IMG/VR virus record: IMGVR_UViG_3300026488_000013
Location: 103,051 to 167,050 of that record
Length of the DNA stretch: 64,000 nucleotides
Reading direction: 5' to 3' (one strand)
DNA from: a virus
The notes below the pieces were generated by a model, which worked only from the letters and a program-made list of their open reading frames with translations, had not been told where the DNA came from and did no database searches. A program made the translations under genes and the position numbers. The stretch's first letter is position 1; the number at the start of each line of letters is the position of its first letter. Positions 10,593 to 48,788 of the stretch are shown one piece after another.

Positions 10593-13085
10593 TTACATAA
10601 ATATCTTATCAAATGCACTTTCAACATATGTATCTTTTGTTTCAGTTAACATATTTCTAAGTGTCCGCTTTGAAGGTTCGTATAGAAATGCCAATATAGG
10701 AGATAATCTTTCAGATGCCTTGGGTAAGGGCAACTTCACAAACTTTGACAAATCTAATTCGTGGAGCTGGACATTATTATTGTGAATAAAGTATCTTAAG
10801 GTTCTATTTATATCGTCAACATCTTGCTCCGTTTTTGATTCGTTAACTTCTGTATCATTATCCAATTCTATATCTTCTTCTTGTTCTATTTCATTTTCTT
10901 CTTTCAAGAACCATAACGCACTCAATATAGTTTCAATCATTACAGATTTAATAAGTTCTATCCCCAATAAAGTATCTGTTATTTCATCATATGCAGTAAA
11001 TATATCTTTATCTATCATTTTGGATTTTATTATTTTTTCAATATTAACAATTTTTGTAACAATATCGTCGTTTACCAATTTACCATTTCCTTTTACTTTA
11101 AATTTTATTATTCCATTTTCACCTATCTTAACGTCTATTAATTCTATTCTATAATCATACCCATTCTCCTCTAGGAATTTGTTTACTTCATTTATCAACT
11201 GTTGAGGGGTATATTCTTTATTATGGATTTCGATATACCCGTCATCGGTATTAAGTTCGATTTTGTATTTTTCTAATATTTCGTTGGGTATCTTGATTAT
11301 CGCACGGCCGGATGTATGGAATGTGCGTAATATAAGTTGAGTAAACCTTTCAGTTATATATTGGATTGATAACATTCCCAGCTGTTTTGATTTTATGGAT
11401 TCGTATCCTCCGCATTTTTTACATACTTTAAATCCAGGAAGTTTGCAGGTTATAGGGCTTCTTAATAGTATTTCTTTACCAATTATACTTTCGTAGTTAT
11501 TTTTTGTTATTAAAATCTCTCTATTTAATTCTTCATCCTTGTAATATCTTCCTATCAAGGATTTGGCATGAACTTCATTTTTTACCTTTATTTTAAAATA
11601 TTTATCAGTCCCGCAATCTTCCGTATCTTCATCAAACATTATAAATGATAGATTGTATAAACCTGTCCTTTGGAGAAATCCAGAGCGTGGCGTTTGAACC
11701 ATTTTGTCAATCTCTCCTTTTCTTGCACCGTGTGCAGACATAAATAATTCTTTTTTTGTTAAACCTTTATTTAATGGATGTCTTACCGGTTCGGATTGAA
11801 CTATATTTTTTGCATCCGCAAGAAAACCTTTCGTATATATTGTCTGTTCAATTTGGTCTCTGGACGCTCTGGCCCCCGATTGATATATTTTCCAAAGTTC
11901 CGTATCTTTCTTTTCCATTTCTTTAAAAACTATTTCGGAATATTTATTTAAAAGATATAACCCAAATATTGGCTCGTTCGGAATGTTGTTTAATATCTTT
12001 TCCACTTCATCTTTGTTGGGGGTTATATAATCGTCCAACGTTAATTTTGGTGCAATTTTCGAATACGAAAATTCTGATAATACTAACATTATTTCGTGAA
12101 ACAAATCTAAATATCTCCTACCAAATTTTTCCAAATCTTTATCTTCATAAAGTTTTTCTTCCTTGTTTAAATATTCGATTATTACTTCGTTCACAATTCT
12201 TACCTTTTTCTTATTTATATCAGTTTCCTTTAGATAAAGCTTTTTATTAAACACTCTATAATTCAAGTAAACCAACCCATACGGTAATGTTATATTTTGA
12301 TTTTTTATTCTTACTGCATACTTTCTTACATCCTCTTTAAACAGAATAATTGGGTTGGGTTTAAAATCCTCAATCGAATCTATTTCAATTATTTTTTCAA
12401 TATATTTCGTTGTCGATAACTGATTTAGTGCATATAAATATTCATGGCGTAATTTGTGTAAAAAATCATCATTTCTGTGGTATCTCAAGAATGTGGTTGC
12501 ATGAATTCTCTTATTAAATATGTCTTGTTTTGCTTCAACAGTATTTATTGCATACTGTGCCATTGTGTCCTGCACAACTATATCATTTGCTACAAATGTG
12601 AAATTCTTATCCAGTGTCATGTCATATGCTGTTCCTTTTCCAGAATATCTTATTTCAATATCAGTTATAGGTATCCGTTTTACTTTATTATTTGGTAAAA
12701 CTTTGATAAAGTATAGGGATTTCTTAATTTGGAAAGGCATATTTAAAATTTCTACAGGAGATATTTTTTCAAACTCGTCCAGCTCTATATTATAAACAAT
12801 CAGCGAGTGGTCTCCAGATGCTTTAAATGGTTGAAATCTATTTCGTTTATCTTTTATTTCGTAAAGGTCTAAGTTTTCATGGACAGAGAACTCAATTATT
12901 TTTGCTCTTTCAATTTTTCCAGTTTCCATATTAAGCGATTTTGTAAACATATCTTTCATAGGTTTATATTTGATTACTTTGACTCCATCGTTTCTTACAT
13001 ATTCATCAATTTTGATAAAAAATTCTTCTAGAAATTCTTTAACACCAACCATTTTCTTCATAATTCTATCATATCCATAAATCAA
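10593..13085 (-). CDS. RNA polymerase beta'-like subunit, C-terminal half, preceded by a split-intein C-fragment
   Basis: After residue 173: TMA (residues that normally follow NADFDGD), SGARAS, HGARKGEID, TPRSGFLQR, EDCGT, LRSPITC..CKKC, TQLILRTFHTSG (trigger loop). The true start is uncertain (13085 TTG, 13061 ATG, or 13104 with an indel). Confidence 0.9.
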   Translation of the reverse strand: MIYGYDRIMKKMVGVKEFLEEFFIKIDEYVRNDGVKVIKYKPMKDMFTKSLNMETGKIERAKIIEFSVHENLDLYEIKDKRNRFQPFKASGDHSLIVYNIELDEFEKISPVEILNMPFQIKKSLYFIKVLPNNKVKRIPITDIEIRYSGKGTAYDMTLDKNFTFVANDIVVQDTMAQYAINTVEAKQDIFNKRIHATTFLRYHRNDDFLHKLRHEYLYALNQLSTTKYIEKIIEIDSIEDFKPNPIILFKEDVRKYAVRIKNQNITLPYGLVYLNYRVFNKKLYLKETDINKKKVRIVNEVIIEYLNKEEKLYEDKDLEKFGRRYLDLFHEIMLVLSEFSYSKIAPKLTLDDYITPNKDEVEKILNNIPNEPIFGLYLLNKYSEIVFKEMEKKDTELWKIYQSGARASRDQIEQTIYTKGFLADAKNIVQSEPVRHPLNKGLTKKELFMSAHGARKGEIDKMVQTPRSGFLQRTGLYNLSFIMFDEDTEDCGTDKYFKIKVKNEVHAKSLIGRYYKDEELNREILITKNNYESIIGKEILLRSPITCKLPGFKVCKKCGGYESIKSKQLGMLSIQYITERFTQLILRTFHTSGRAIIKIPNEILEKYKIELNTDDGYIEIHNKEYTPQQLINEVNKFLEENGYDYRIELIDVKIGENGIIKFKVKGNGKLVNDDIVTKIVNIEKIIKSKMIDKDIFTAYDEITDTLLGIELIKSVMIETILSALWFLKEENEIEQEEDIELDNDTEVNESKTEQDVDDINRTLRYFIHNNNVQLHELDLSKFVKLPLPKASERLSPILAFLYEPSKRTLRNMLTETKDTYVESAFDKIFM
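12567..13085 (-). other. Intein fragment lacking block A (large IntC of an atypically split intein)
   Basis: Block B KASGDHSL, block F TAYDMTLDKNFTFVAND, block G IVVQD/T; no N-terminal Cys/Ser and no N-extein. Confidence 0.8.
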
Positions 13086-13140
13086 GTCAAATGTGAGAAA
13101 TCATAATGTTTTAAAAAATAAAACCAAAACAAGACTTTTG

Positions 13141-15168
13141 CTATTTTGCGATTTCATTAAAAATTTGTCTTTTTGTATTCAAGATTCTACAAATCTTTTC
13201 GTCTATAGTATCTTTTGCAATCAAATAGTATATTAATACCGTATCCGATTTCTGTGATATTCTATGTATTCTATCCTCCGCCTGCTCTAAATCCTGTGGG
13301 TTCCACCACAATTCTACAAACAACGATGTATCAGCCGCAGTGAGAGTTATTCCTTCTTTTGCGGCCTTTAAAGACAATACTATAATTTTATGCTCAGGAT
13401 TATTTTGAAATTTATCTATTATTTGTTTTCTTTCTTCCGGGGGCGTATCCCCGGTTATTTTTAATGGTTTTAATCTACCAAGTTGTTTGTCACTTACTAT
13501 TTCCTCATATAACCTTTTCTGAACCTCCTTATGATATGCAAAAACCACCAATTTAGAATTAGGATATTCCGCAAAATAATTTCGTATCCAATCTATAGCA
13601 TATTTAGTTTTTATTTCTCCTATTTTCATCCACAATTTATTATATAATATCAAGAATATTTCAGGATACTTCTGTGCTATATAATCCATTGCATTCTGAA
13701 CATCTGTTATATATGAGGGTAGGTATGCACTGGGTCTAATTTCTAATAGTAGATTTTTTATTTTATCAACGGAATTATAATTTTGTATCTTAAATTGCTC
13801 GTATTCTTTTTTATCTTCATCCGATAATTCAACCCAAATAGTTTTAACAAGTTTATCCGGTAATTGTTTTAATACTTGTTTTTTTGTTCTTCTAATCATT
13901 ATCGTTGTTCTCAATTTCATATTTATGTCATCTAACATTCTGGAGCCTAATATTTTCCAATAACCTCCACGCCCTTTTCGTATGAATTCCATTATCAAAT
14001 ATCTTTGTCTAAATTCCGTTATCGTATCAGCATAATATTTTAAAGTGTCCGTTATTTCCAGTAATGGTATTAATTCTTCAGGATTGTTTTGAATAGGCGT
14101 TCCTGTTATGAGAATTTTTTTATCTATTAATTTTGACAACTCTAATACCGATTTTGTTCTTTTAGAGTTTCTATTCTTCAAATAATGAGCTTCATCGGCT
14201 ATTAACAGATTAAATTTATGTTTCTTCAATAAATCCTTCCAGTATTGTATTATGTCGTAATTTATTATTACGAATTTTTTGTTTTTAAATGTTTGCAACC
14301 CGTGATAAAACCCGCTCAATGCCGGGTTGGTTCCTTTAAGAATAAGTATATCTGTTGAAGGTATTTTAAAGAATTTTTGTATTTCTCTTTTCCAGTTTTC
14401 TTTTAATATAGCGGGGGTTATTATTAAAACTGGAAATGTTTTTGTTTTAATAGTCCATATTAAAGCTTGAAGAGTTTTTCCGACACCCATTTGGTCTGCC
14501 AATAGCACAGAATTATATTCTTTCATTTTCTTATGTATTAGTTTTACACCGACGCACTGAAATGGAAATAATTTATCTCCACTGGGGAGTATTTTTAAGG
14601 GATAACTTTCATCTTTACATTTTTTACTAGAAACTGCGGCGGATTTTTTATATTCGTCTAGCAATTTTTCCATAACCAATTCTATCGTGTTTCTAATATC
14701 ATCATCTAACCACTTTTGTTCTAAAACCAATCTGTAAGTTTTATATGTTATTGGCAATTCAATATAACTATCTCGATAGTTATAATAATAATTTTTCCCA
14801 TTGATAATATAATCCCATATACTTTTCAATTCATCTGTATATTTCAATACTCTGGCAAGCTGGGCAGGTGTTAGATTTTTCAATCTTAAAAACATTTTTT
14901 CAGTATCAAGTTCCACATTCCTATCCATCTTCAACTCCTCTATTGATGGTAATTTAATAACACTAAAATTAAATTTGGAAATGAGAAATTTCAAATTTTC
15001 GTATTCTTTTTGTGTATAGAGATATATAAGCCACTTCTTTCCTTTTTTACCAAAATAAGTATGACTAAACAAGTTTCTTATATTGTTATTAATTTCATCT
15101 AAATATTTATTCAACTTTATTGTGAAAATTTTATTTCCAACATACTCTACTACACCGGTGGCACTCAT
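13141..15168 (-). CDS. SNF2-family (HARP-like) helicase
   Basis: LFPFQ, LADQMGVGKT, IADEAHYLKN, TGTPIQN, EGITLT, WWNP..LEQAEDRIHR. Confidence 0.92.
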   Translation of the reverse strand: MSATGVVEYVGNKIFTIKLNKYLDEINNNIRNLFSHTYFGKKGKKWLIYLYTQKEYENLKFLISKFNFSVIKLPSIEELKMDRNVELDTEKMFLRLKNLTPAQLARVLKYTDELKSIWDYIINGKNYYYNYRDSYIELPITYKTYRLVLEQKWLDDDIRNTIELVMEKLLDEYKKSAAVSSKKCKDESYPLKILPSGDKLFPFQCVGVKLIHKKMKEYNSVLLADQMGVGKTLQALIWTIKTKTFPVLIITPAILKENWKREIQKFFKIPSTDILILKGTNPALSGFYHGLQTFKNKKFVIINYDIIQYWKDLLKKHKFNLLIADEAHYLKNRNSKRTKSVLELSKLIDKKILITGTPIQNNPEELIPLLEITDTLKYYADTITEFRQRYLIMEFIRKGRGGYWKILGSRMLDDINMKLRTTIMIRRTKKQVLKQLPDKLVKTIWVELSDEDKKEYEQFKIQNYNSVDKIKNLLLEIRPSAYLPSYITDVQNAMDYIAQKYPEIFLILYNKLWMKIGEIKTKYAIDWIRNYFAEYPNSKLVVFAYHKEVQKRLYEEIVSDKQLGRLKPLKITGDTPPEERKQIIDKFQNNPEHKIIVLSLKAAKEGITLTAADTSLFVELWWNPQDLEQAEDRIHRISQKSDTVLIYYLIAKDTIDEKICRILNTKRQIFNEIAK

Positions 15169-26327: not shown

Positions 26328-27854
26328 CTAAATTAAAATCAACTTATCTCCTATTTTTAATTTGCCAGCATCCTTTAATTCTATTCTTTGTTTTTTATCG
26401 TTATAAACAAAAATTGAATGATTTTCTGTAACTTTTATTACAGCTCCAGATTTTGTTTTTATTTTCAATATTTTGTATTTTCTTTTATGTTGTATTTTCC
26501 CTTTTATCTTTTTCCAAACAACATTACCATTTTTATCTAATGTTAAAGTTTCATCTCCTTCCTCAAACTTATATTCGCCAATCGGAACCTCTCTAATTAC
26601 TCCATTTTCTTTTTTAATCAATATTAATTGGTCATAAGTTAATGATTGGTCAAAATCCATTATTAGTCCTGTTATATATCTGGGTTTGGTTTTTTTAACA
26701 TATGCTCCGAATATTTTTGTTGAAAAATATGTCTCTTTAAATACATCCATTTGCGATGGATATGGGAATTTTTCATATGGCAAAAATGACCTGATTTCGG
26801 AATTATCTCTTTCGGTTAAGATATTACGCATAATGTCTTCGCCATATTTTGTTGCCCCACGGTATGCCATTTTAAACAGTGATTTGGACATTCGTCGTAA
26901 AGAATTATAAGTGTTTATAATGTCCAACTTTTTATCCAGGGCTTTAACCAATAAAGTATCTACAATGTTATAAAAAATATAATCTTCTATATGTTCTTTA
27001 TATGCCAAATCGAAATCTTTCCCTTGTGATGTTTTTAATTCAACCTTTTTAATGCCGAGCTCTTGTTTAGAAATATAGTCCAATTCATATGTTTCTTGAG
27101 TATCACCAAAACCTAACCCTTCGCCGGGCTTATACATGTATAAAATATCAACAAACATCAAATCTGGTGCTTGCAATCCATAGGCTTTCGAATATTGCAC
27201 TGTTTTAAATTTGGATATTACTTCGCCCGGGTTGTCTACTCCTAGATTAATAAGTCTGTTATAAATATATGGGAAGTCAAAATCATCCGAATAAAACCCG
27301 GCTATCGTCCAGACATTTTGCTTTTGAATTAAGTCGAATACATCTTTTATCATTTGCTTCTCTGCATCTATACACGGTTCGCCGCAGGTCTTAGCTTGCA
27401 GATTTTTATTATTCTTCGGAGTATAAATCTTTAATATTACTTTTATATCCTCTTCCGTCTCGAAAATTTCTTTAAGTTTTGAATAATGAGTATTTATAGA
27501 TTTTTCCAAACACTCTCTTAATTCATTCGGATTTTCGATAAAATATTTGTGTTGTTTATATTTGGGGTTTAACAAACAAAAAGCATAAACTTCATTTTTA
27601 TGAGAAAATGCCAATGAAATCAATACTATTGGATATTCCGCCTTGGAAGGTTCGGGAAACACTCCAACAAATCTAGTAAATACCTCTATGTCTATGTATG
27701 CTTTCCTAAAAAATTGTGGGGCATCATAATTATCTTTTTCTTTTCTCTTTTGATACCACTCCAAAGCACGCTGTCTGTCGGGCGAGTATTCTAATGAATA
27801 AAATTGCCATGGTTTTAATTTTTTCAAATTAGCTGCCATGCTCAAGACCCCCAT
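26328..27854 (-). CDS. polB: Family-B DNA polymerase, part 1 (3'-5' exonuclease + first half of motif A + IntN)
   Basis: ExoI IDIEV, ExoII GFYSDDFDFPY, ExoIII YNIVD, GAYVK, MDFDQ|SLTYD...; likely start at the second Met (MAANL, 27839). Confidence 0.9.
   Translation of the reverse strand: MGVLSMAANLKKLKPWQFYSLEYSPDRQRALEWYQKRKEKDNYDAPQFFRKAYIDIEVFTRFVGVFPEPSKAEYPIVLISLAFSHKNEVYAFCLLNPKYKQHKYFIENPNELRECLEKSINTHYSKLKEIFETEEDIKVILKIYTPKNNKNLQAKTCGEPCIDAEKQMIKDVFDLIQKQNVWTIAGFYSDDFDFPYIYNRLINLGVDNPGEVISKFKTVQYSKAYGLQAPDLMFVDILYMYKPGEGLGFGDTQETYELDYISKQELGIKKVELKTSQGKDFDLAYKEHIEDYIFYNIVDTLLVKALDKKLDIINTYNSLRRMSKSLFKMAYRGATKYGEDIMRNILTERDNSEIRSFLPYEKFPYPSQMDVFKETYFSTKIFGAYVKKTKPRYITGLIMDFDQSLTYDQLILIKKENGVIREVPIGEYKFEEGDETLTLDKNGNVVWKKIKGKIQHKRKYKILKIKTKSGAVIKVTENHSIFVYNDKKQRIELKDAGKLKIGDKLILI
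26331..26645 (-). other. Split intein N-fragment (105 aa, Ser1)
   Basis: Block A SLTYDQLILI, block B IKVTENHSIF, ends AGKLKIGDKLILI-stop. Confidence 0.93.
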
Positions 27855-29512: not shown

Positions 29513-32035
29513 TTATGGAATTAAAAAATTAAAAAAATAACCAGAATTAGAATGTTCCGTTTTAATAGCCGAAATAATTTTGTCAAAATTTTTTATTTTT
29601 TCATCTAATACCTTTTCTCTTTGTGTCTGAAAATCTATCTCTATACCAACTTCTTTCAATTTGTCCAATAGGAATTTGGGTTTTATTCCCGGCGGGACAA
29701 AAATAACATTTATTTTTTCCTTTATCCACTGTAAAGGATTTTTCATTGTAAATATCTCCTTTAATTGATAACCCGACAACTCGGTTTTTTTCTTGGTTTT
29801 CAATATTTCGTCTATTCTTTTTTTCAACTTTAATGGATTAGTTATTTTAATAGAAAGTCTGTATGATTTTTTACCGGGGCGCAATTCATCCTTAAAAATT
29901 GTATTCCAAAATTTGGCTGCTAAAACATACGCAGGTTCCTTTTTATAATTTGCCTTAGACCATGAGCTGGGTATTCCGATATATTTTAAGTTTAATTCTC
30001 TAACACTCTCGTTATATCTATTTACCCAATACATTTTCCTTTCAATATATACTGCAGGCAGTTTTTCGATTTCTCTTCTATAATCTATAAATGTTTGAAT
30101 AATATCCATTTGTAGTTCCTTAGTAAATGGGGCCGCATCGGAGCGAACAACCTCAAATCCGGTAATTTTAACTTTGGGTGGGTCATATAAAACTTTATCA
30201 TCCATTAACATATTCACAAAATATCTTTTTTTAGCATCAATAAATGCTATCGCATCCATAACAATTTCTGTTTTGAAATCTAATGTGTTCCATTCCGGAG
30301 ACACATTACAATAATTCAAAACTTCCCCTTGCCATCTTTGCTTTAGATAATCGTTGATTTCTATAGCCAACGGTTTTATAAAATCTTCATATACCTTTTT
30401 AACTATTTCTGGTTTTGATAAATCCCAACCTCTTTCTAATATCCTAGTGTAATTATCAATAAACACAAATAATGAATCAGTGTCTGAATACAGAATATTC
30501 GGAATATTGTTATCTTTCTCAACATCCATAAAGAATGTCGGTGTTGTTATTATATTTTCTTCATCATCATTGATATCAAATACTGCGGTTTCACCCGTCG
30601 CAAATGGTCTATATCCAGAGTATTCTTCAATTTTATTTTCCAATTTGGTCTTAATCTGTAATTTATTAAACTCATACTCCAATTCTTCTAAAACATAATG
30701 TTTCCTTTTATACATTTCAGTATGCGATTCTATTATGTCTTTAAATTCGTCTAGCTTTGAACGCTGTAAATCTTTATAAAATTTGTAATCATATATTATT
30801 TCCGAATTTAGATTCTCACGGTTTTCAATAAAAGAAATTTCTTTTATATCGTTGGTTCTATCCGTAAAATACACTGTATGGCTAAAAGGGATTTTCCAAT
30901 AATAGATTTCATCCGTATCTTTTTTAGTAGTTATAAACAGATATTCGTTTGTTTCCTGAAGAATATTAATATCTAACAACAAGTATTCATCTGGTATTTC
31001 ATCGGGAGAACTTACCTTAAATACATTAATATCTTCCTGCTCAAAATTATTGTTTGTTTTCCCTGGCCTTGATGCAGATTTAATATGTTTTATTTCTTCT
31101 TGTAAAAATGAGAAGAATTTTTCATATTCAGGCGGAGTATCTATATTTTCACGTATATATTTTGATGGGTGAGTTAAATAATACACTTTTATATTTTTTT
31201 CATTAATTAATTGCTGGAGTTGCTCCGAGGATTCTATTAAATTCCTATTTTCACCTTTCCCTAAAACAACAATTATATCTGGGTCAAACTGATTTATTTC
31301 TTCTATCAGATTATTGACACAGAAGTTCTTAAAAATATCGATTAACGGAACTTCTGAGACATTTTTCAATGTTTCTTGGTTAGAAGTTGAACATTTTATG
31401 GAGTTGGTAAAAATATATCTACAATTCAATTGTTCGGTATATTTTCTTAACAATTGACCTGCTTTTCCAACAAAAGGCTCGCCTCTCTTTGCTTCTTCTG
31501 TCCCCGGATTTATCCCAACAAAAAGTATAGTAGGTTTGTCGATATTACTATTAAAAATTTTATAAGAAACTTTCCTTAAATCCTTATTTAAAAGTGGACA
31601 GTTCAAACAATATTTAGAATAAATATTTTCATATTTTTTATACTTATTCCTATAGTACAGAACAAAACTATCCTCTATATTTTTGTTATTGTCAATTTCT
31701 GATAAAACTGGATGTGAATAATTGTTGATTGGATTCTTAGTATAAGGTAGATTCTTTAATTCGTCTAGGTTAAATTCGCCGGGATTATTGAAGTATAAAG
31801 GGATAATTTCATTTAAAAAATAAACGATTAAATCCTGAAGTTTATATTTATTGTGAGCACTTTTATTTAGGTCTAACAATTTAATAAAAATATTATTAAG
31901 TCGAGGGGAATTAGAAAATATTCTAAACAGTTGCTTCAATACGAAACTATAATTATCTCTTATTATATCGATTTCGTCGTTATTTAGCTTTTCTCCATTA
32001 AAAGGTTTTACAATCAGGTCTAACAACTGTCGCAT
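29513..32035 (-). CDS. polB: Uracil-DNA glycosylase (family-4-like) fused to family-B DNA polymerase part 3 (motif C + thumb)
   Basis: UDG: CLNCPL, FVGINPGTEE..GEPFVGKAGQLL, TNSIKC, FC, THPS; Pol: LYSDTDSLFV, DFKTE, AKKRY, KITGFEVVRSD. Confidence 0.88.
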   Translation of the reverse strand: MRQLLDLIVKPFNGEKLNNDEIDIIRDNYSFVLKQLFRIFSNSPRLNNIFIKLLDLNKSAHNKYKLQDLIVYFLNEIIPLYFNNPGEFNLDELKNLPYTKNPINNYSHPVLSEIDNNKNIEDSFVLYYRNKYKKYENIYSKYCLNCPLLNKDLRKVSYKIFNSNIDKPTILFVGINPGTEEAKRGEPFVGKAGQLLRKYTEQLNCRYIFTNSIKCSTSNQETLKNVSEVPLIDIFKNFCVNNLIEEINQFDPDIIVVLGKGENRNLIESSEQLQQLINEKNIKVYYLTHPSKYIRENIDTPPEYEKFFSFLQEEIKHIKSASRPGKTNNNFEQEDINVFKVSSPDEIPDEYLLLDINILQETNEYLFITTKKDTDEIYYWKIPFSHTVYFTDRTNDIKEISFIENRENLNSEIIYDYKFYKDLQRSKLDEFKDIIESHTEMYKRKHYVLEELEYEFNKLQIKTKLENKIEEYSGYRPFATGETAVFDINDDEENIITTPTFFMDVEKDNNIPNILYSDTDSLFVFIDNYTRILERGWDLSKPEIVKKVYEDFIKPLAIEINDYLKQRWQGEVLNYCNVSPEWNTLDFKTEIVMDAIAFIDAKKRYFVNMLMDDKVLYDPPKVKITGFEVVRSDAAPFTKELQMDIIQTFIDYRREIEKLPAVYIERKMYWVNRYNESVRELNLKYIGIPSSWSKANYKKEPAYVLAAKFWNTIFKDELRPGKKSYRLSIKITNPLKLKKRIDEILKTKKKTELSGYQLKEIFTMKNPLQWIKEKINVIFVPPGIKPKFLLDKLKEVGIEIDFQTQREKVLDEKIKNFDKIISAIKTEHSNSGYFFNFLIP

Positions 32036-43979: not shown

Positions 43980-46900
43980 TTAAATTCCTGGGTCTAATCC
44001 TAAGGAATACATGACTGCTCTAAATAACTCTTTGGAACCGGTATCTCCTCTTGGATATGTTTCGGGGCCTTTTCCATTATTTACTATGTATGAGTAAACA
44101 TAATTTTTAGCAATGTGGTCGTCCGCCTGAACAGTCAAGAATTCTTTCAACACTTCCGAATCATCGCCTAATCTGTTTAATAATGCTTGGATGGTTAATG
44201 TATCCAACGATTGTGAAGCTTTTTCACCTTCCTTGGATTCACCTTTCACACCCTGTCCGATTATGTTATACTTACCTCTAGAACGAAAACCCATCATAAT
44301 ATCCGGCATATGTTCCAATATTGTTACATATGCAAATCCAACAGCTATGGGTCTTTCGGTAAAAGCTTTTAGGGAAGGTATATATATCCTCTCCAAGAAA
44401 GGAATATTCAAAATATTTTCCATTGTAAACCTAATGTCTTCTTCTTTTATTTCACTGAAAGGCACCGCTATCCAAATAAAAACAGGGTCATGTTTTGGGT
44501 CTTTAATAGATTTACATATTTGCCTAAATTCTTCATCTGGTATATTAACTACACTGTCGATTATATTTTTAACAACTTTCTTACTCTCATCTGTTTCAGG
44601 AATTGACCTAACAAGATTAGAATATACGTCAATTACCAATTTTTTAATATCTTTGGTTTTTTCATTATTTTCAACCATTTCTTTAACTCTTTTATTAAGG
44701 AAATACATTATTTTGCCAATTTGTATTTCTTTGAAGAAATTAGCATTTTTACGTCCAATATTGGATAGTGGATTGTGTATCCAATCTATTTCAATTTTCG
44801 TTATTTCTGAAATAGGTTTTTCATCTAGTTCTATTATTCCGGTATCGACACCTTTATTACCGCCACGGAATACAAATTTATCGCCCTTACTGGGTTCTCT
44901 ATCTGCTTCAATTAAAAACATAATAAGTGCGCCCTTAAATTCATTTCCCTTCCAAGTATGCCCGCCTTTGACAAACATAGATGTATCGATAGTATCTTCA
45001 AATGAATAATCATCTTCCCCGTTAATTTGTTTTGCTAAATCAATTATACCTTTATATTTATTCACCATTCTTTTCCAGACCGTTTCTATAGTTTTAGGAG
45101 CTTTACCATTTATGTAAATTCTAACTTCTTTTAAAACTCCATCTGCCGGTGAACGAATAGCAATTCCATCTGATTCTTTAAATATACCTTGTTCGTTTGC
45201 CATAAACTCAATATCTTCAACAGATGCGGCCTTTTCTTCAGGCATTAAACCATTTTGTTCAAGATATTCTTCCAATGTATCGTTATACTTAAATTTCAAT
45301 AAAATATCTCCGAATTTAACAGGTGTATTTTCTTCATAAACAAATTTATCTACTATTGCGTCTGGTGGCACAATAACAATTACTTCTTTATATCGTTTGT
45401 GCTTAAAACTGTTTAATGCATCTTTTGATGCCGCCCATCCATCTTCATAAACTTCACCTCTGTAAGTGAATAACGCAACCGAAACGTTTTTTCCATATGC
45501 ATAAATTCCCTTTCTTAATTGTTGTGATGCTGCAAGAATCTGCCCCTTTTCAATTTTATCACCTACCTTAACGGTAGGTTCTAATTTAACAGGCATAAAA
45601 ATACCACGTTTAATTCTAGCCAATCTGGGCATTATATTATATATCTTTCTAGTTCCGTCTTCGTATTTAACTACTATATATTTACCCTCTTTAATATCTT
45701 CAACAACACCATTCTTTTCTGCTCTAATTGCAAATCTTTGAGAAACAATCTGTGGTATCAAAAATTCCGAACCCGACGCAACCAGCGGAATATCAGGATT
45801 TTCTATTGGGATAGTTTGTCTCAATTGTTGTGCCATTTTAATTGTTCTATCGTGGTCAATAGATTGGATATATGGGGCCAAAGATTCTCCTATACCCAAA
45901 GTTTCGTATCCTTTTATATTCGATAAGTCATATTTAGATAAGAAGAATCCATATTTATCAGAAATCAACGCCGTCCAGGTTAATTGGTTATTTGAACCTA
46001 CATTAGAATATTCATTGGTATCTAATGCAGATATATTCTGAAAATGTGCGGTTACATGTTTACCAGTTTTAGGGTCTTTTTCAAAAGGTATAAGTCTATG
46101 TTTCAAAGATAGTGCATCATTAGGAAGTCCACCTATTCCTTTGGGTGTTATTCTCGTAGACACATTAAGTTCATCAATAGGATTAACAGGTTCAGTGTAT
46201 TGTAATAAAGATTCACCTAACAATAGTTGTTGAATAACATAATCTGGATTAATATAGTATTTATCCATGTATTTTTCATCAATTTTACCGGATTCTTTTA
46301 ATCCTAAGGCTCTTTTTTCCAATTCATGTTTTGCCTGAGCAATCTGTTTGTATAATATATGCAATACAACTTCGGATAACCTTGTTCTATGTATTCTTAA
46401 ATCGGTGGGTTTATATACTTTTGAGTTAAATAAAGCTGTTAGCAGTTCATTTGTTAGAATGTTAAAGTAGTTTGTCGATTTCCCCTCAGCTTTCAGTATT
46501 TCCTTTGTAACAGGGTCAATCATATATCTTCTAAACAACAAATTAATTCTTGCTGCACCATTTCCGAATAATTTATCCATCCATTCATCCCTTATCTTTT
46601 GATTATTTTCAAATTCTTCAAACTTATATTTGTCTAAATATAAATTATTCACAGCAAATATACCGTTAACAATGTATTCCTCTTTTATGTTATCGGGGTA
46701 AAGATTAAGATATTTATTGTTAGACAACGCAATTGTTGTATATGCGTTTTTGTCGGGAGAATCTGATATTTCATATTCAATCCCTAATTTCTCTAAGGAT
46801 TTTATTATTCCAAAATTACCAAATAAAAACAGAATATATGGCATTTTGAAACCACCGAGATAAATTTCAACATACGGCAATTTGGAAGTTGTAGATAATT

Positions 46901-48788
46901 TATCATTCGGGTTGATTTTTCTTATTAATTTGGTTAAGTAGTTAATCAAATATTCATTTATTTTTTCTTTAAGTTCGGTTTCTTCACCAGAAGTTTTATC
47001 TTTTAAAATAACCGCATCCTTATTAGCATCATAAATGACCTCTTTATCATCACATTCCAAAACTAGGAATTTTGCACTGCCGATAGGATTAAATCCATAT
47101 AATTTACATCCGTCGATAAATTCTACATTATATTTAATGGGTGCCAGGTATTCCGCAATTTCCTCTGGATGTTCTATTTCTTCGATATTTTTAATCAATT
47201 TAGGATACTTTTGATGAATATAATCTATCAACGAATTAATATCATTGAGAGATAATTTATAGTTCTTAAGATTTAAGGTTACGATAGCATAATATGTTAA
47301 CAATCTTGCTTTATTTTTATCTGTAACGGTAATTGGCTTTAGAAATCTTTGATTAGCTAAAACATAAGTCTTTCCATTCAATTTGAAATATCTTTGGTTA
47401 ATAAGAGCGGGGATTTTTATCTGCAAGTCATATGATTCGCCGGTTTTTTCATTTTCCACAGTTACTGTATATAGCCAAAATCTGTTTAGTTTGTCATCGA
47501 TAAGTTCTCTTTTAATGTTCTTAATTCTTTTCTTAAGAGGAACAGTATCTGGAATATCTTCTAAAGATTTTAGCAGTGTTCTAATATATGTATCTATTCT
47601 TTCGCCAAACTCTTTTTCATGTAGATTTGTAATAGTAGATTTTAAAGATAAAACTTTATCAGGATTATATATTGTTTGAAATCTTTTATCTACGGGTTTG
47701 GGAATTATTTCTTCATAAACGATAATATGCCGGCGCAAAATTTCAAAAATATCCTCGGGAGTTAATTTATCCAAATTAACATTTATTAAATTTAATTTTT
47801 CTTTCAAAATTTCGTTTAATAATTTATAAGATTTTTCCTTATCAATTATTTTAATTTGTTTTTCTTCCACATAGTCTTTTGTCAATTCTTTAATAAAATT
47901 TTCTATTTTGTTGTGTTCCTCAGCATTAATTGTATTTTCAATTTTACTTAAAATATTCACTTTAAACGCTTTTATTAGCGTATTCACTTGTTCGTCTAAT
48001 TCATTGTCGGTTAATATTTTTGCGGCGGTTATGTTTAATTCGTTGATTAACTCTTTAGAATATTTCAAAATGTCTAATAACGAATATTTGTTTACTACAA
48101 ATTTACCATTTACAGAATTAGCAAAGATGCTATATATTGCCCTGCTTGAAAATGGGACAACATAATAAATATTGTTTTCAAAATTATCAATACCTTCCAA
48201 TTCGTAAGATTTGGATTTTATCCAAGGTATGAAACTATTTTTAATAAACTCTAAATCTTTGTCATTGTGAGGATTTATTACCAGTATCGGAACAATATCA
48301 ATAGGAGTGTTTATTTTATTTTCTTTATAAAGTTTGTCAAAATATTCTTTTGCATTTTTTAATTCCTGAATAAATATTTCATACCAAATATCCCAGAATT
48401 TTTCTCTACTCTCTTCATATTTTTTAAATACTGGCGAAAGCTGATAATAAATCGGAAATAAATCAACTATTAGGTTTTTAAAGAATGTTATATTATTAAT
48501 TGCCCTTATGGGTTTTATAAGTTTTAACCATCTGTTAGTTTTGTATTGTGAAACTAACTCTTCATATGTTTGAAGAGTATTTATTTTGACACCATAAATG
48601 TTCTTATTATGAATGGGGACATAAAGTTTATCGAATTGGGTTTTAAGGATATTTAATCTGGGAAGTAGTTCGTATGCTGTAGAATTATATTGAGGAAATA
48701 ATGGAAATAAAATAATTACGGCGGGAGGTTTTACTGTAAGAAGAGATACTTTTTTATTAGGAGAATTTATTTTTCTTATATCTATCAT
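43980..48788 (-). CDS. RNA polymerase beta-like subunit (unsplit, long N-terminal extension)
   Basis: 1602 aa; FKLNGKTY, NPIDEL..STRIT, DTNE, DHDRT.KMAQQLRQ, VYEDG, GDKFVFRGGNKG, NPLSNIGR, LEH.P, RSRG. Confidence 0.88.
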   Translation of the reverse strand: MIDIRKINSPNKKVSLLTVKPPAVIILFPLFPQYNSTAYELLPRLNILKTQFDKLYVPIHNKNIYGVKINTLQTYEELVSQYKTNRWLKLIKPIRAINNITFFKNLIVDLFPIYYQLSPVFKKYEESREKFWDIWYEIFIQELKNAKEYFDKLYKENKINTPIDIVPILVINPHNDKDLEFIKNSFIPWIKSKSYELEGIDNFENNIYYVVPFSSRAIYSIFANSVNGKFVVNKYSLLDILKYSKELINELNITAAKILTDNELDEQVNTLIKAFKVNILSKIENTINAEEHNKIENFIKELTKDYVEEKQIKIIDKEKSYKLLNEILKEKLNLINVNLDKLTPEDIFEILRRHIIVYEEIIPKPVDKRFQTIYNPDKVLSLKSTITNLHEKEFGERIDTYIRTLLKSLEDIPDTVPLKKRIKNIKRELIDDKLNRFWLYTVTVENEKTGESYDLQIKIPALINQRYFKLNGKTYVLANQRFLKPITVTDKNKARLLTYYAIVTLNLKNYKLSLNDINSLIDYIHQKYPKLIKNIEEIEHPEEIAEYLAPIKYNVEFIDGCKLYGFNPIGSAKFLVLECDDKEVIYDANKDAVILKDKTSGEETELKEKINEYLINYLTKLIRKINPNDKLSTTSKLPYVEIYLGGFKMPYILFLFGNFGIIKSLEKLGIEYEISDSPDKNAYTTIALSNNKYLNLYPDNIKEEYIVNGIFAVNNLYLDKYKFEEFENNQKIRDEWMDKLFGNGAARINLLFRRYMIDPVTKEILKAEGKSTNYFNILTNELLTALFNSKVYKPTDLRIHRTRLSEVVLHILYKQIAQAKHELEKRALGLKESGKIDEKYMDKYYINPDYVIQQLLLGESLLQYTEPVNPIDELNVSTRITPKGIGGLPNDALSLKHRLIPFEKDPKTGKHVTAHFQNISALDTNEYSNVGSNNQLTWTALISDKYGFFLSKYDLSNIKGYETLGIGESLAPYIQSIDHDRTIKMAQQLRQTIPIENPDIPLVASGSEFLIPQIVSQRFAIRAEKNGVVEDIKEGKYIVVKYEDGTRKIYNIMPRLARIKRGIFMPVKLEPTVKVGDKIEKGQILAASQQLRKGIYAYGKNVSVALFTYRGEVYEDGWAASKDALNSFKHKRYKEVIVIVPPDAIVDKFVYEENTPVKFGDILLKFKYNDTLEEYLEQNGLMPEEKAASVEDIEFMANEQGIFKESDGIAIRSPADGVLKEVRIYINGKAPKTIETVWKRMVNKYKGIIDLAKQINGEDDYSFEDTIDTSMFVKGGHTWKGNEFKGALIMFLIEADREPSKGDKFVFRGGNKGVDTGIIELDEKPISEITKIEIDWIHNPLSNIGRKNANFFKEIQIGKIMYFLNKRVKEMVENNEKTKDIKKLVIDVYSNLVRSIPETDESKKVVKNIIDSVVNIPDEEFRQICKSIKDPKHDPVFIWIAVPFSEIKEEDIRFTMENILNIPFLERIYIPSLKAFTERPIAVGFAYVTILEHMPDIMMGFRSRGKYNIIGQGVKGESKEGEKASQSLDTLTIQALLNRLGDDSEVLKEFLTVQADDHIAKNYVYSYIVNNGKGPETYPRGDTGSKELFRAVMYSLGLDPGI

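Follow-up and report, generated by a model that had tools for sequence, protein, structure and literature searches.

How does a large, uncultured phage obtain a complete RNA polymerase beta' subunit from a gene that begins at the catalytic motif with part of an intein? This question is raised by a stretch of 64,000 nucleotides (hereafter the window) that corresponds to bases 103051-167050 of the 167,050-bp IMG/VR virus record IMGVR_UViG_3300026488_000013, which has a G+C content of 28% and an estimated completeness of ~60%, and which stems from hydrothermal-vent metagenomes. An open reading frame (ORF) on the minus strand of the window (P0001, 10593-13085) opens with a long C-terminal intein piece (IntC) and runs on into the C-terminal half of beta' (beta'-C). 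As detailed below, the N-terminal half (beta'-N) and a very short N-terminal intein piece (IntN) are encoded by a distant gene of the same record, and protein trans-splicing probably assembles the beta' of this phage from a pair of precursors. That the split intein is real, and that it belongs to an apparently undescribed family, is well supported.

Two genes for one beta' subunit

The motifs by which a first-pass annotation of the window had recognized an intein in this gene were all found by direct translation. Block B (S90-G-D-H93, comprising B:7 Ser and B:10 His) is encoded at 12807-12818 and blocks F and G (AYDMTL...FTFVANDIVVQD, residues 153-173, with Asp155 as F:4) at 12567-12629, both on the minus strand, and TMAQY follows directly. 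The intein piece thus ends in Gln172-Asp173 (codons 12572-12570 and 12569-12567), and Thr174 (12566-12564, minus strand), the first residue of the C-extein, is at position +1. The Pfam profile Intein_splicing aligns with residues 43-171 through its positions 18-153 of 155 (expectation value (E) 1.8e-4), leaving its first ~17 positions, where block A is expected, unmatched in P0001. Likewise, the Ssp DnaB mini-intein aligns from its own residue 27 to residue 154, indicating that ~26 N-terminal intein residues are absent from the beta'-C gene. Translation is likely to start at ATG 13061 (MKKM) or ATG 13052 (MVGV) rather than at TTG 13085, which is disfavoured because the homologue P0007 begins at the MVGV position. 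The resulting IntC of 165 or 162 residues, respectively, agrees with the ~165-173 residues originally proposed. Counted from the first ATG, IntC spans 12567-13061 (minus strand), an assignment to which translation, Pfam, AlphaFold2 modelling with Foldseek and family comparison all contribute. There is no cysteine in IntC, nor anywhere else in the intein. The C-extein (10593-12566, minus strand) consists of 657 residues, from TMAQY to the stop codon at 10593-10595, and includes the trigger-loop region. Its identity as the C-terminal half of beta' follows from Pfam Rpb1 domain 5 (PF04998, residues 441-720, E 4.5e-15), PHROG RNA polymerase families, NCBIfam rpoC and the homologues P0007 and P0008.

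In a six-frame motif scan of the 167-kb record, no D[FYW]DG-type motif was detected in the window, in agreement with the reported absence of NADFDGD, and the sole NADYDGD of the record was found outside it, in just the kind of unlinked beta'-N gene that had been predicted. This gene (P0004, genome 37468-39411, minus strand, equivalent to L005:4466-6412) encodes 648 residues with Rpb1 domains 1 and 2, and its product ends with FNADYDGD followed by SVSQARVIIEFADMSSIILHLNPH and a stop codon, that is, with a 624-residue N-extein next to a 24-residue IntN whose first residue is Ser625. Both genes, beta'-N and beta'-C, lie on one strand, separated by 74 kb, and in the direction of transcription the C-half precedes the N-half, which excludes a join at the RNA level via a simple intron. 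When the two exteins are joined, NADYDGD-TMAQY matches the corresponding region of intein-free relatives (DFDGD-QMAVY or DFDGD-TFAIY, with DFDGD-xMAxY as the general pattern). With an IntN of 24 residues, below the limit of ~30, and an IntC of ~165 residues on a separate gene, the arrangement is that of a short-IntN split.

The following scenario can be proposed. Precursor 1 would be the 624-residue beta'-N ending in NADYDGD plus the 24-residue IntN from Ser625, and precursor 2 the ~165-residue IntC ending in Gln172-Asp173, then Thr174 as the first residue of the 657-residue beta'-C. IntN is modelled to supply the first beta-strands of the HINT fold, thereby completing the fold on IntC. By analogy with class 1 chemistry, Ser625 would form an ester at the Asp624-Ser625 bond, the N-extein would pass to Thr174, and Asp173 would cyclize instead of an Asn, releasing the intein. 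An O-to-N shift would then yield a continuous beta' of 1281 residues reading NADYDGD-TMAQY, with the junction peptide ...NADYDGDTMAQYAINTVEAK. Since the junction is at this very point, the Mg-binding loop and the strand following it would become one chain only after splicing. Features of class 1 inteins that are present are the HINT fold, Ser at position 1, B:10 His, F:4 Asp and Thr at +1. The canonical C-terminal His-Asn was not found, Gln172-Asp173 being in its place, but inteins ending in Asp, Gln or Glu may follow the class 1 mechanism with that residue cyclizing in step 3, and some inteins can do without the penultimate His (Mills, Johnson and Perler, PMC4031507). As Asp can cyclize, class 1 chemistry is compatible with an Asp end. 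The class 3 (WCT motif) hallmarks of a Cys at F:4 and no nucleophile at position 1 were not seen, F:4 being Asp155, position 1 Ser, and Cys being absent.

Structural models point in the same direction. AlphaFold2, run on IntC with 19 extein residues and an alignment of 39 family sequences, returned a model with a mean predicted local distance difference test (pLDDT) of 90.3 and a predicted template modelling score of 0.81. A Foldseek search of the Protein Data Bank with this model gave 32 matches at E<=1e-3, the listed top ones being inteins or other HINT domains (BIL, Hedgehog). The best was the cysteine-less split intein Aes123 PolB1 (9HTH, E 1.3e-8, template modelling score 0.64-0.68), and the RadA, KlbA and DnaB inteins came next. 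By its modelled structure, IntC is therefore a HINT domain. A complex was also predicted between IntC and the last 53 residues of beta'-N, alongside three controls. It scored 0.79 versus 0.00 for the best control, a difference to which likeness to solved split-intein complexes may contribute; 58 of 80 solved complexes and 2 of 110 mismatched pairs attain the 0.79 mark. The runs agreed in no less than 57% of contacts, and the pLDDT of the partner was 56 or higher. Residues 624-636 and 640-648 of the tail are modelled in contact with IntC residues 10-18, 44-49, 85-94, 164-167 and 171. More precisely, 631-636 pair with 44-49 as well as with 164-166 in the block G strand, 640-648 pair with 10-18, and the start of the tail lies beside block B (85-94, touching 85-90 and 94) and residue 171. 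This predicted placement has the geometry that the active site of an intein should have, and bears on association only, not on chemistry.

An intein family at the DFDGD site

When 1.84 billion representative proteins were scanned in full with HMMER for IntC, 89 clusters emerged at E<=1e-3, 57 of them also at E<=1e-10. All identifiable exteins in these clusters are beta', and every N-terminal junction that was found follows D[FYW]DGD. Three forms of the intein coexist at this site. In ~39 clusters it is split as in our phage, with a beta'-C gene that opens with a long IntC, typically starting M-K-L-F. In 21 clusters it is split in the classic manner, with an IntN of ~130 residues ending a beta'-N gene. 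In 13 clusters it is contiguous, which includes a mini-intein in the 1146-residue beta' P0207 as well as large forms bearing insertions several hundred residues long. The remaining clusters are fragments from incomplete records. The first-pass annotation had presented the intein as a combination of rare traits. It is indeed split and Asp-terminated, but it is not a one-off since it is one member of a large family. Other searches returned intein-free genes for the most part: the beta' genes that tblastn detected in cultured phages were all distant and free of inteins, and a scan of IMG/VR with beta'-N yielded mostly giant-virus and intein-free phage genes.

Comparison with contiguous relatives supports the view that the two pieces make up one intein. 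When the beta'-N tail and IntC are joined, positions 1-198 of 200 align as a single domain with residues 345-531 of P0207, with nothing missing or duplicated, and P0180 likewise aligns with the joined pieces. This plain collinearity speaks against a duplication, an idea suggested by the resemblance between ARVIIEF in the tail and AKIIEF in IntC. The three beta'-N homologues P0068-P0070 end in NAD[YF]DGD/S (the slash marking the junction) with 21-33 residues after this Ser. On the C-terminal side, P0007 has the same QD/TMA end, and is 53% identical to P0001 over the intein and 51% over the extein, hence the intein is not decaying faster than its host protein.

Residues at the junctions are constrained. 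Across 43 C-terminal junctions the last intein residue is invariably Asp, whereas the penultimate residue varies (Q 31, Y 6, F 2, M 2, W 1 and N 1), and the +1 residue is T in 38, S in 4 and C in 1. Residue 1 of the intein, at 36 N-terminal junctions, is S in 24, T in 6, C in 5 and A in 1. By comparison, the residue that follows DFDGD in 141 intein-free beta' sequences is Q in 133, T in 6, V in 1 and C in 1. Conservation among 39 family members reaches at least 90% at block B Asp-His, at block F Asp and at the terminal Asp. Judging from these alignments, the catalytic positions appear to be under selection across the family, a pattern for which a pure docking role does not seem to account. The sole invariant column in the 39 members is His69 of P0001 (12879-12881; SVHEN, within E-[FY]-S-x-H-x-N), a residue that matches no standard intein block and that is predicted by the model to contact IntN.

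There are variations on this theme. In P0212, the intein has a canonical Asn end and a C-extein that starts inside the motif (...LMLKN/TDGDTVAVY, equivalent to NAD^TDGD), so that NADFDGD seems to offer the family two neighbouring points of insertion. In P0162, P0174 and P0177, a complete intein ending in [WY]D/S is followed by a second IntN-like start (e.g. SCYVDTTVY...) that extends to the end of the protein, which looks like tandem inteins at one site, the second of which is classically split.

Probable trans-splicing and its alternatives

Several points weigh against trans-splicing of beta', or at least call for caution. The Pfam Intein_splicing score of P0001 is 21.8 bits, well short of the gathering cut-off of 35.8, and NCBIfam assigns the protein to rpoC but returns no intein model. 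All the chemical steps outlined above are inferred, and two assisting residues are absent, the terminal Asn being replaced by Asp and the penultimate His by Gln. Asp at position -1 provokes premature N-terminal cleavage in many inteins (PMC11842431). Finally, the incompleteness of the record bears on gene order in the whole genome. As regards the -1 residue, its being fixed as Asp implies that premature cleavage must be coped with, which is one more reason to think that the chemistry of the family has been tuned. A bolder proposal, which we regard as rather unlikely though worth stating, is that the invariant terminal Asp is more than a defect that has been put up with, and that, with the fixed -1 Asp (the third one of the Mg-binding triad), the non-His penultimate residue and the invariant His69, it defines a distinct splicing subclass, in which Asp cyclization, the last step, would be gated by pH, temperature or the binding of metal.

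The alternative that survives best, improbable as we consider it, is that splicing has been lost and that the HINT domain docks beta'-N and beta'-C non-covalently, or that IntC merely cleaves itself off. Among cultured jumbo phages, PBS1 and vB_StaM_SA1 have separate intein-free beta'-C genes, so a split beta' can work without ligation, the Asn and penultimate His are absent from the intein as noted, and the complex model speaks for association rather than chemistry. However, docking alone would leave unexplained why nucleophiles occupy position 1 (35 of 36) and position +1 (43 of 43) when Gln is dominant in intein-free genes, and why there is next to no variation in the block B His, block F Asp and terminal Asp. 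It is also difficult to reconcile with the 13 clusters in which the domain is contiguous within one beta' chain, right after the Mg-binding Asp, since, to judge from the polymerase structures that are known, the active centre is buried and should have no room for an insert of 20 kDa that stayed in place.

A second alternative retains splicing but shifts the junction by one residue, with an N-extein ending in DYDG, an intein running from Asp624 to Gln172 and Asp173 at +1. The ligated product would be the same (NADYDG-DTMAQY) and Gln-terminal inteins are known (PMC4031507). The first-pass annotation had left open whether Asp173 was the intein's final residue or the third Asp of the motif. The beta'-N gene and the family settle this point: DYDGD is complete in the N-extein, Asp173 is the last intein residue and Thr174 is at +1. 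The shift would place Asp, which is not a nucleophile, at both position 1 and +1, while S, T or C, which occupy these two positions across the family, would be invariant where they have no role and the intein would end in a residue that varies (Q, Y, F, M, W or N). We therefore consider this alternative very unlikely.

Least credible of all is an assembly artefact or a decaying pseudogene, in which the halves would really be one gene or a dead one: this is a metagenome assembly that is ~60% complete, but both ORFs are intact, intein and extein have diverged to a similar extent, ~39 clusters share the intein start point and a short tail precedes the stop in four beta'-N genes. An independent Logan contig from the probable source run (7126 nt, depth 88) covers window positions 12300-13900 with zero differences, and a contig from a second vent sample in another study, from a relative ~95% identical, covers 12894-13111, across the start of IntC. 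These contigs, together with the many homologues that share start and stop points, exclude a misassembly. There was no RNA run among the sequencing runs that contain the stretch. Each point on which the first-pass annotation had made its reading depend was thus examined, and the reading held: there is no misassembly at the locus, the gene with the IntN exists and the predicted structure is that of an intein.

Origin of the split, known systems and significance

How the split might have come about is suggested by the gene next to beta'-N. Directly downstream of it, after a 123-bp gap, lies a 671-residue ORF (P0005) with zinc ribbons and a nuclease core that matches PHROG homing-endonuclease families (~1e-8). 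A search for relatives with a six-row alignment detected three loci. In the IMG/VR relatives L056 and L058, the classic-split form is found as adjacent genes for beta'-N with IntN, a free-standing candidate endonuclease and IntC with beta'-C. The middle ORF of L056 matches the nuclease core of P0005 weakly (E 1e-4 in a two-sequence comparison), while that of L058 gave no significant match to P0005. A free-standing endonuclease gene between the halves of a split intein is the fractured-gene layout of Dassa et al. 2009 (PMC2677866). The three-gene adjacency was not found in our phage, in which the nuclease follows IntN and IntC is 74 kb off. From gene content and order, the simplest reading is that the break in the intein gene coincides with the endonuclease gene, as in a fractured gene, and that the C-half has been relocated. 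Instead of entering at the usual loop, an endonuclease gene would have inserted itself after the first ~24 codons of the intein gene, leaving a short IntN, and the C-half would have moved later.

The site itself may be prone to such events. Four unrelated phage beta' genes (L007, L010, L014 and L049) break 2-3 codons after NADFDGD, their products ending in DGDKQ, DGDKK, DGDKR and DGDIN, respectively. Introns or other mobile elements may target the DNA coding for NADFDGD, and the motif looks like a general homing hot spot. There is no support for the idea that the classical beta' split of jumbo phages derives from the intein break, as beta'-C of PBS1 and SA1 begins ~20 residues past the equivalent of Thr174.

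The phage has other elements of this kind. The exonuclease piece of its family B DNA polymerase (window 26328-27854, minus strand) ends in a classic IntN (Pfam Intein_splicing, residues 420-507, E 2.8e-8), which is, from its sequence, a second split intein of the same phage. Outside the window, a second beta'-N-like gene (672-residue ORF, genome 7330-9348) has an insert of ~160 residues within its catalytic motif, LGAD/CNWDL...GYVKKQ/CDG (genome 7432-7932, equivalent to L006:3433-3933, minus strand), and the ORF continues past CDG. The insert might be a HINT-like element in contiguous form, with Cys1, Gln as its last residue and Cys at +1, four residues upstream of the split-intein site, the same offset as that at which the C-extein of P0212 starts. 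The family hidden Markov model matches it with E 0.004, without the block B His, and pairwise BLAST with E 0.067. Its neighbours according to a language model include intein clusters (0.91-0.92), a single-sequence AlphaFold2 model has a pLDDT of 32, and Rfam at gathering thresholds found no match in L006.

Beyond these genes, the window contains a replication and transcription module, with a DnaB-like helicase, a class I ribonucleotide reductase and the split family B DNA polymerase, as well as a 1602-residue RNA polymerase beta-like protein with Rpb2 domain 6 (43980-48788, minus strand) and an 840-residue protein with a uracil-DNA glycosylase domain (29513-32035, minus strand). Upstream of the beta'-C gene is an SNF2-family helicase (13141-15168, minus strand; Pfam SNF2-rel_dom 1e-41 and Helicase_C) and not beta'-N, which leaves beta'-C alone at its locus. 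A sigma-70-like promoter match (TTGACT, 16 nt, TG-n-TAGAAT; 13063-13090, minus strand) directly precedes the possible starts of IntC; it scores 10/12, yet the count of such sites is not above that in shuffled sequence, making it a lead only.

The natural atypically split inteins AceL-TerL, GOS-TerL and VidaL have a short IntN and Cys at position 1. They share with the phage intein a very short IntN and a long IntC on separate genes in phage-like metagenomic DNA, whereas the phage intein has Ser1, no Cys and a Gln-Asp rather than His-Asn end, resides in the catalytic motif of beta' and has classic-split and contiguous kin at the same site. Inteins are also found in archaeal A' and A''. In P0084 and P0128, compact beta'/A'-like proteins of ~1050 residues, there is an intein with Ser1 in the trigger loop (RTFH/SLR...IHN/SG), not at DFDGD. 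The closest structure, Aes123 PolB1 (9HTH; PMC11923092), likewise comes from a phage, is split, begins with Ser1 and lacks Cys, but it differs by a classic split site, an Asn end (N159 in the title of the crystal construct), a PolB extein and an identity of only ~20%. Asp- or Gln-terminal inteins such as Chy RIR1, CIV RNR and Pab Pol II (Amitai et al. 2004, cited by PMC4031507) are alike in the proposed chemistry, the Asp-terminal Chy RIR1 being the nearest, with a non-Asn end that can still cyclize in an otherwise class 1 intein. They are isolated variants viewed as evolutionary intermediates, whereas here Asp is fixed in all 43 junctions together with a non-His penultimate residue. The phage intein resembles fractured genes in having a free-standing endonuclease gene at the break, and departs from them in that the break is ~24 residues into the intein instead of in the endonuclease loop, with the IntC half far away. 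Finally, the RPB2, RPA2 and RPC2 inteins of eukaryotes and their viruses are found close to the active centre, at buried sites of the highest conservation, and assembly has to await their removal (PMC1635734). These inteins are contiguous and belong to the second-largest subunit, while the phage intein is split and follows immediately on the Mg-binding Asp triad of the largest one. Full-text searching of the literature found no intein at DFDGD and no split intein in a jumbo-phage polymerase. What is new is the combination, in one conserved family, of an IntN of very small size, a lack of cysteine, a terminal Asp that never varies and a catalytic Asp-triad site.

Several implications follow. 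Because Pfam and NCBIfam thresholds miss such inteins, their genes are annotated as plain beta' fragments. Cys-free split inteins are rare and sought after (PMC11923092), and a 24-residue IntN is within easy reach of peptide synthesis; were the gated subclass proposed above to exist, it would offer a natural Cys-free split intein with a peptide-sized IntN, usable in protein semisynthesis. The finding of the same intein in contiguous form, classically split and split after ~25 residues illustrates how homing-endonuclease genes can fracture inteins at different points. An Asp that is fixed in a diverse family argues against Asp and Gln ends being transient accidents, and provides many natural sequences in which to study that chemistry. 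For the phage itself, the covalent continuity of the catalytic loop of its RNA polymerase would depend on protein trans-splicing and, if the tentative idea of gating were true, the active site of the polymerase would be completed only under set conditions.

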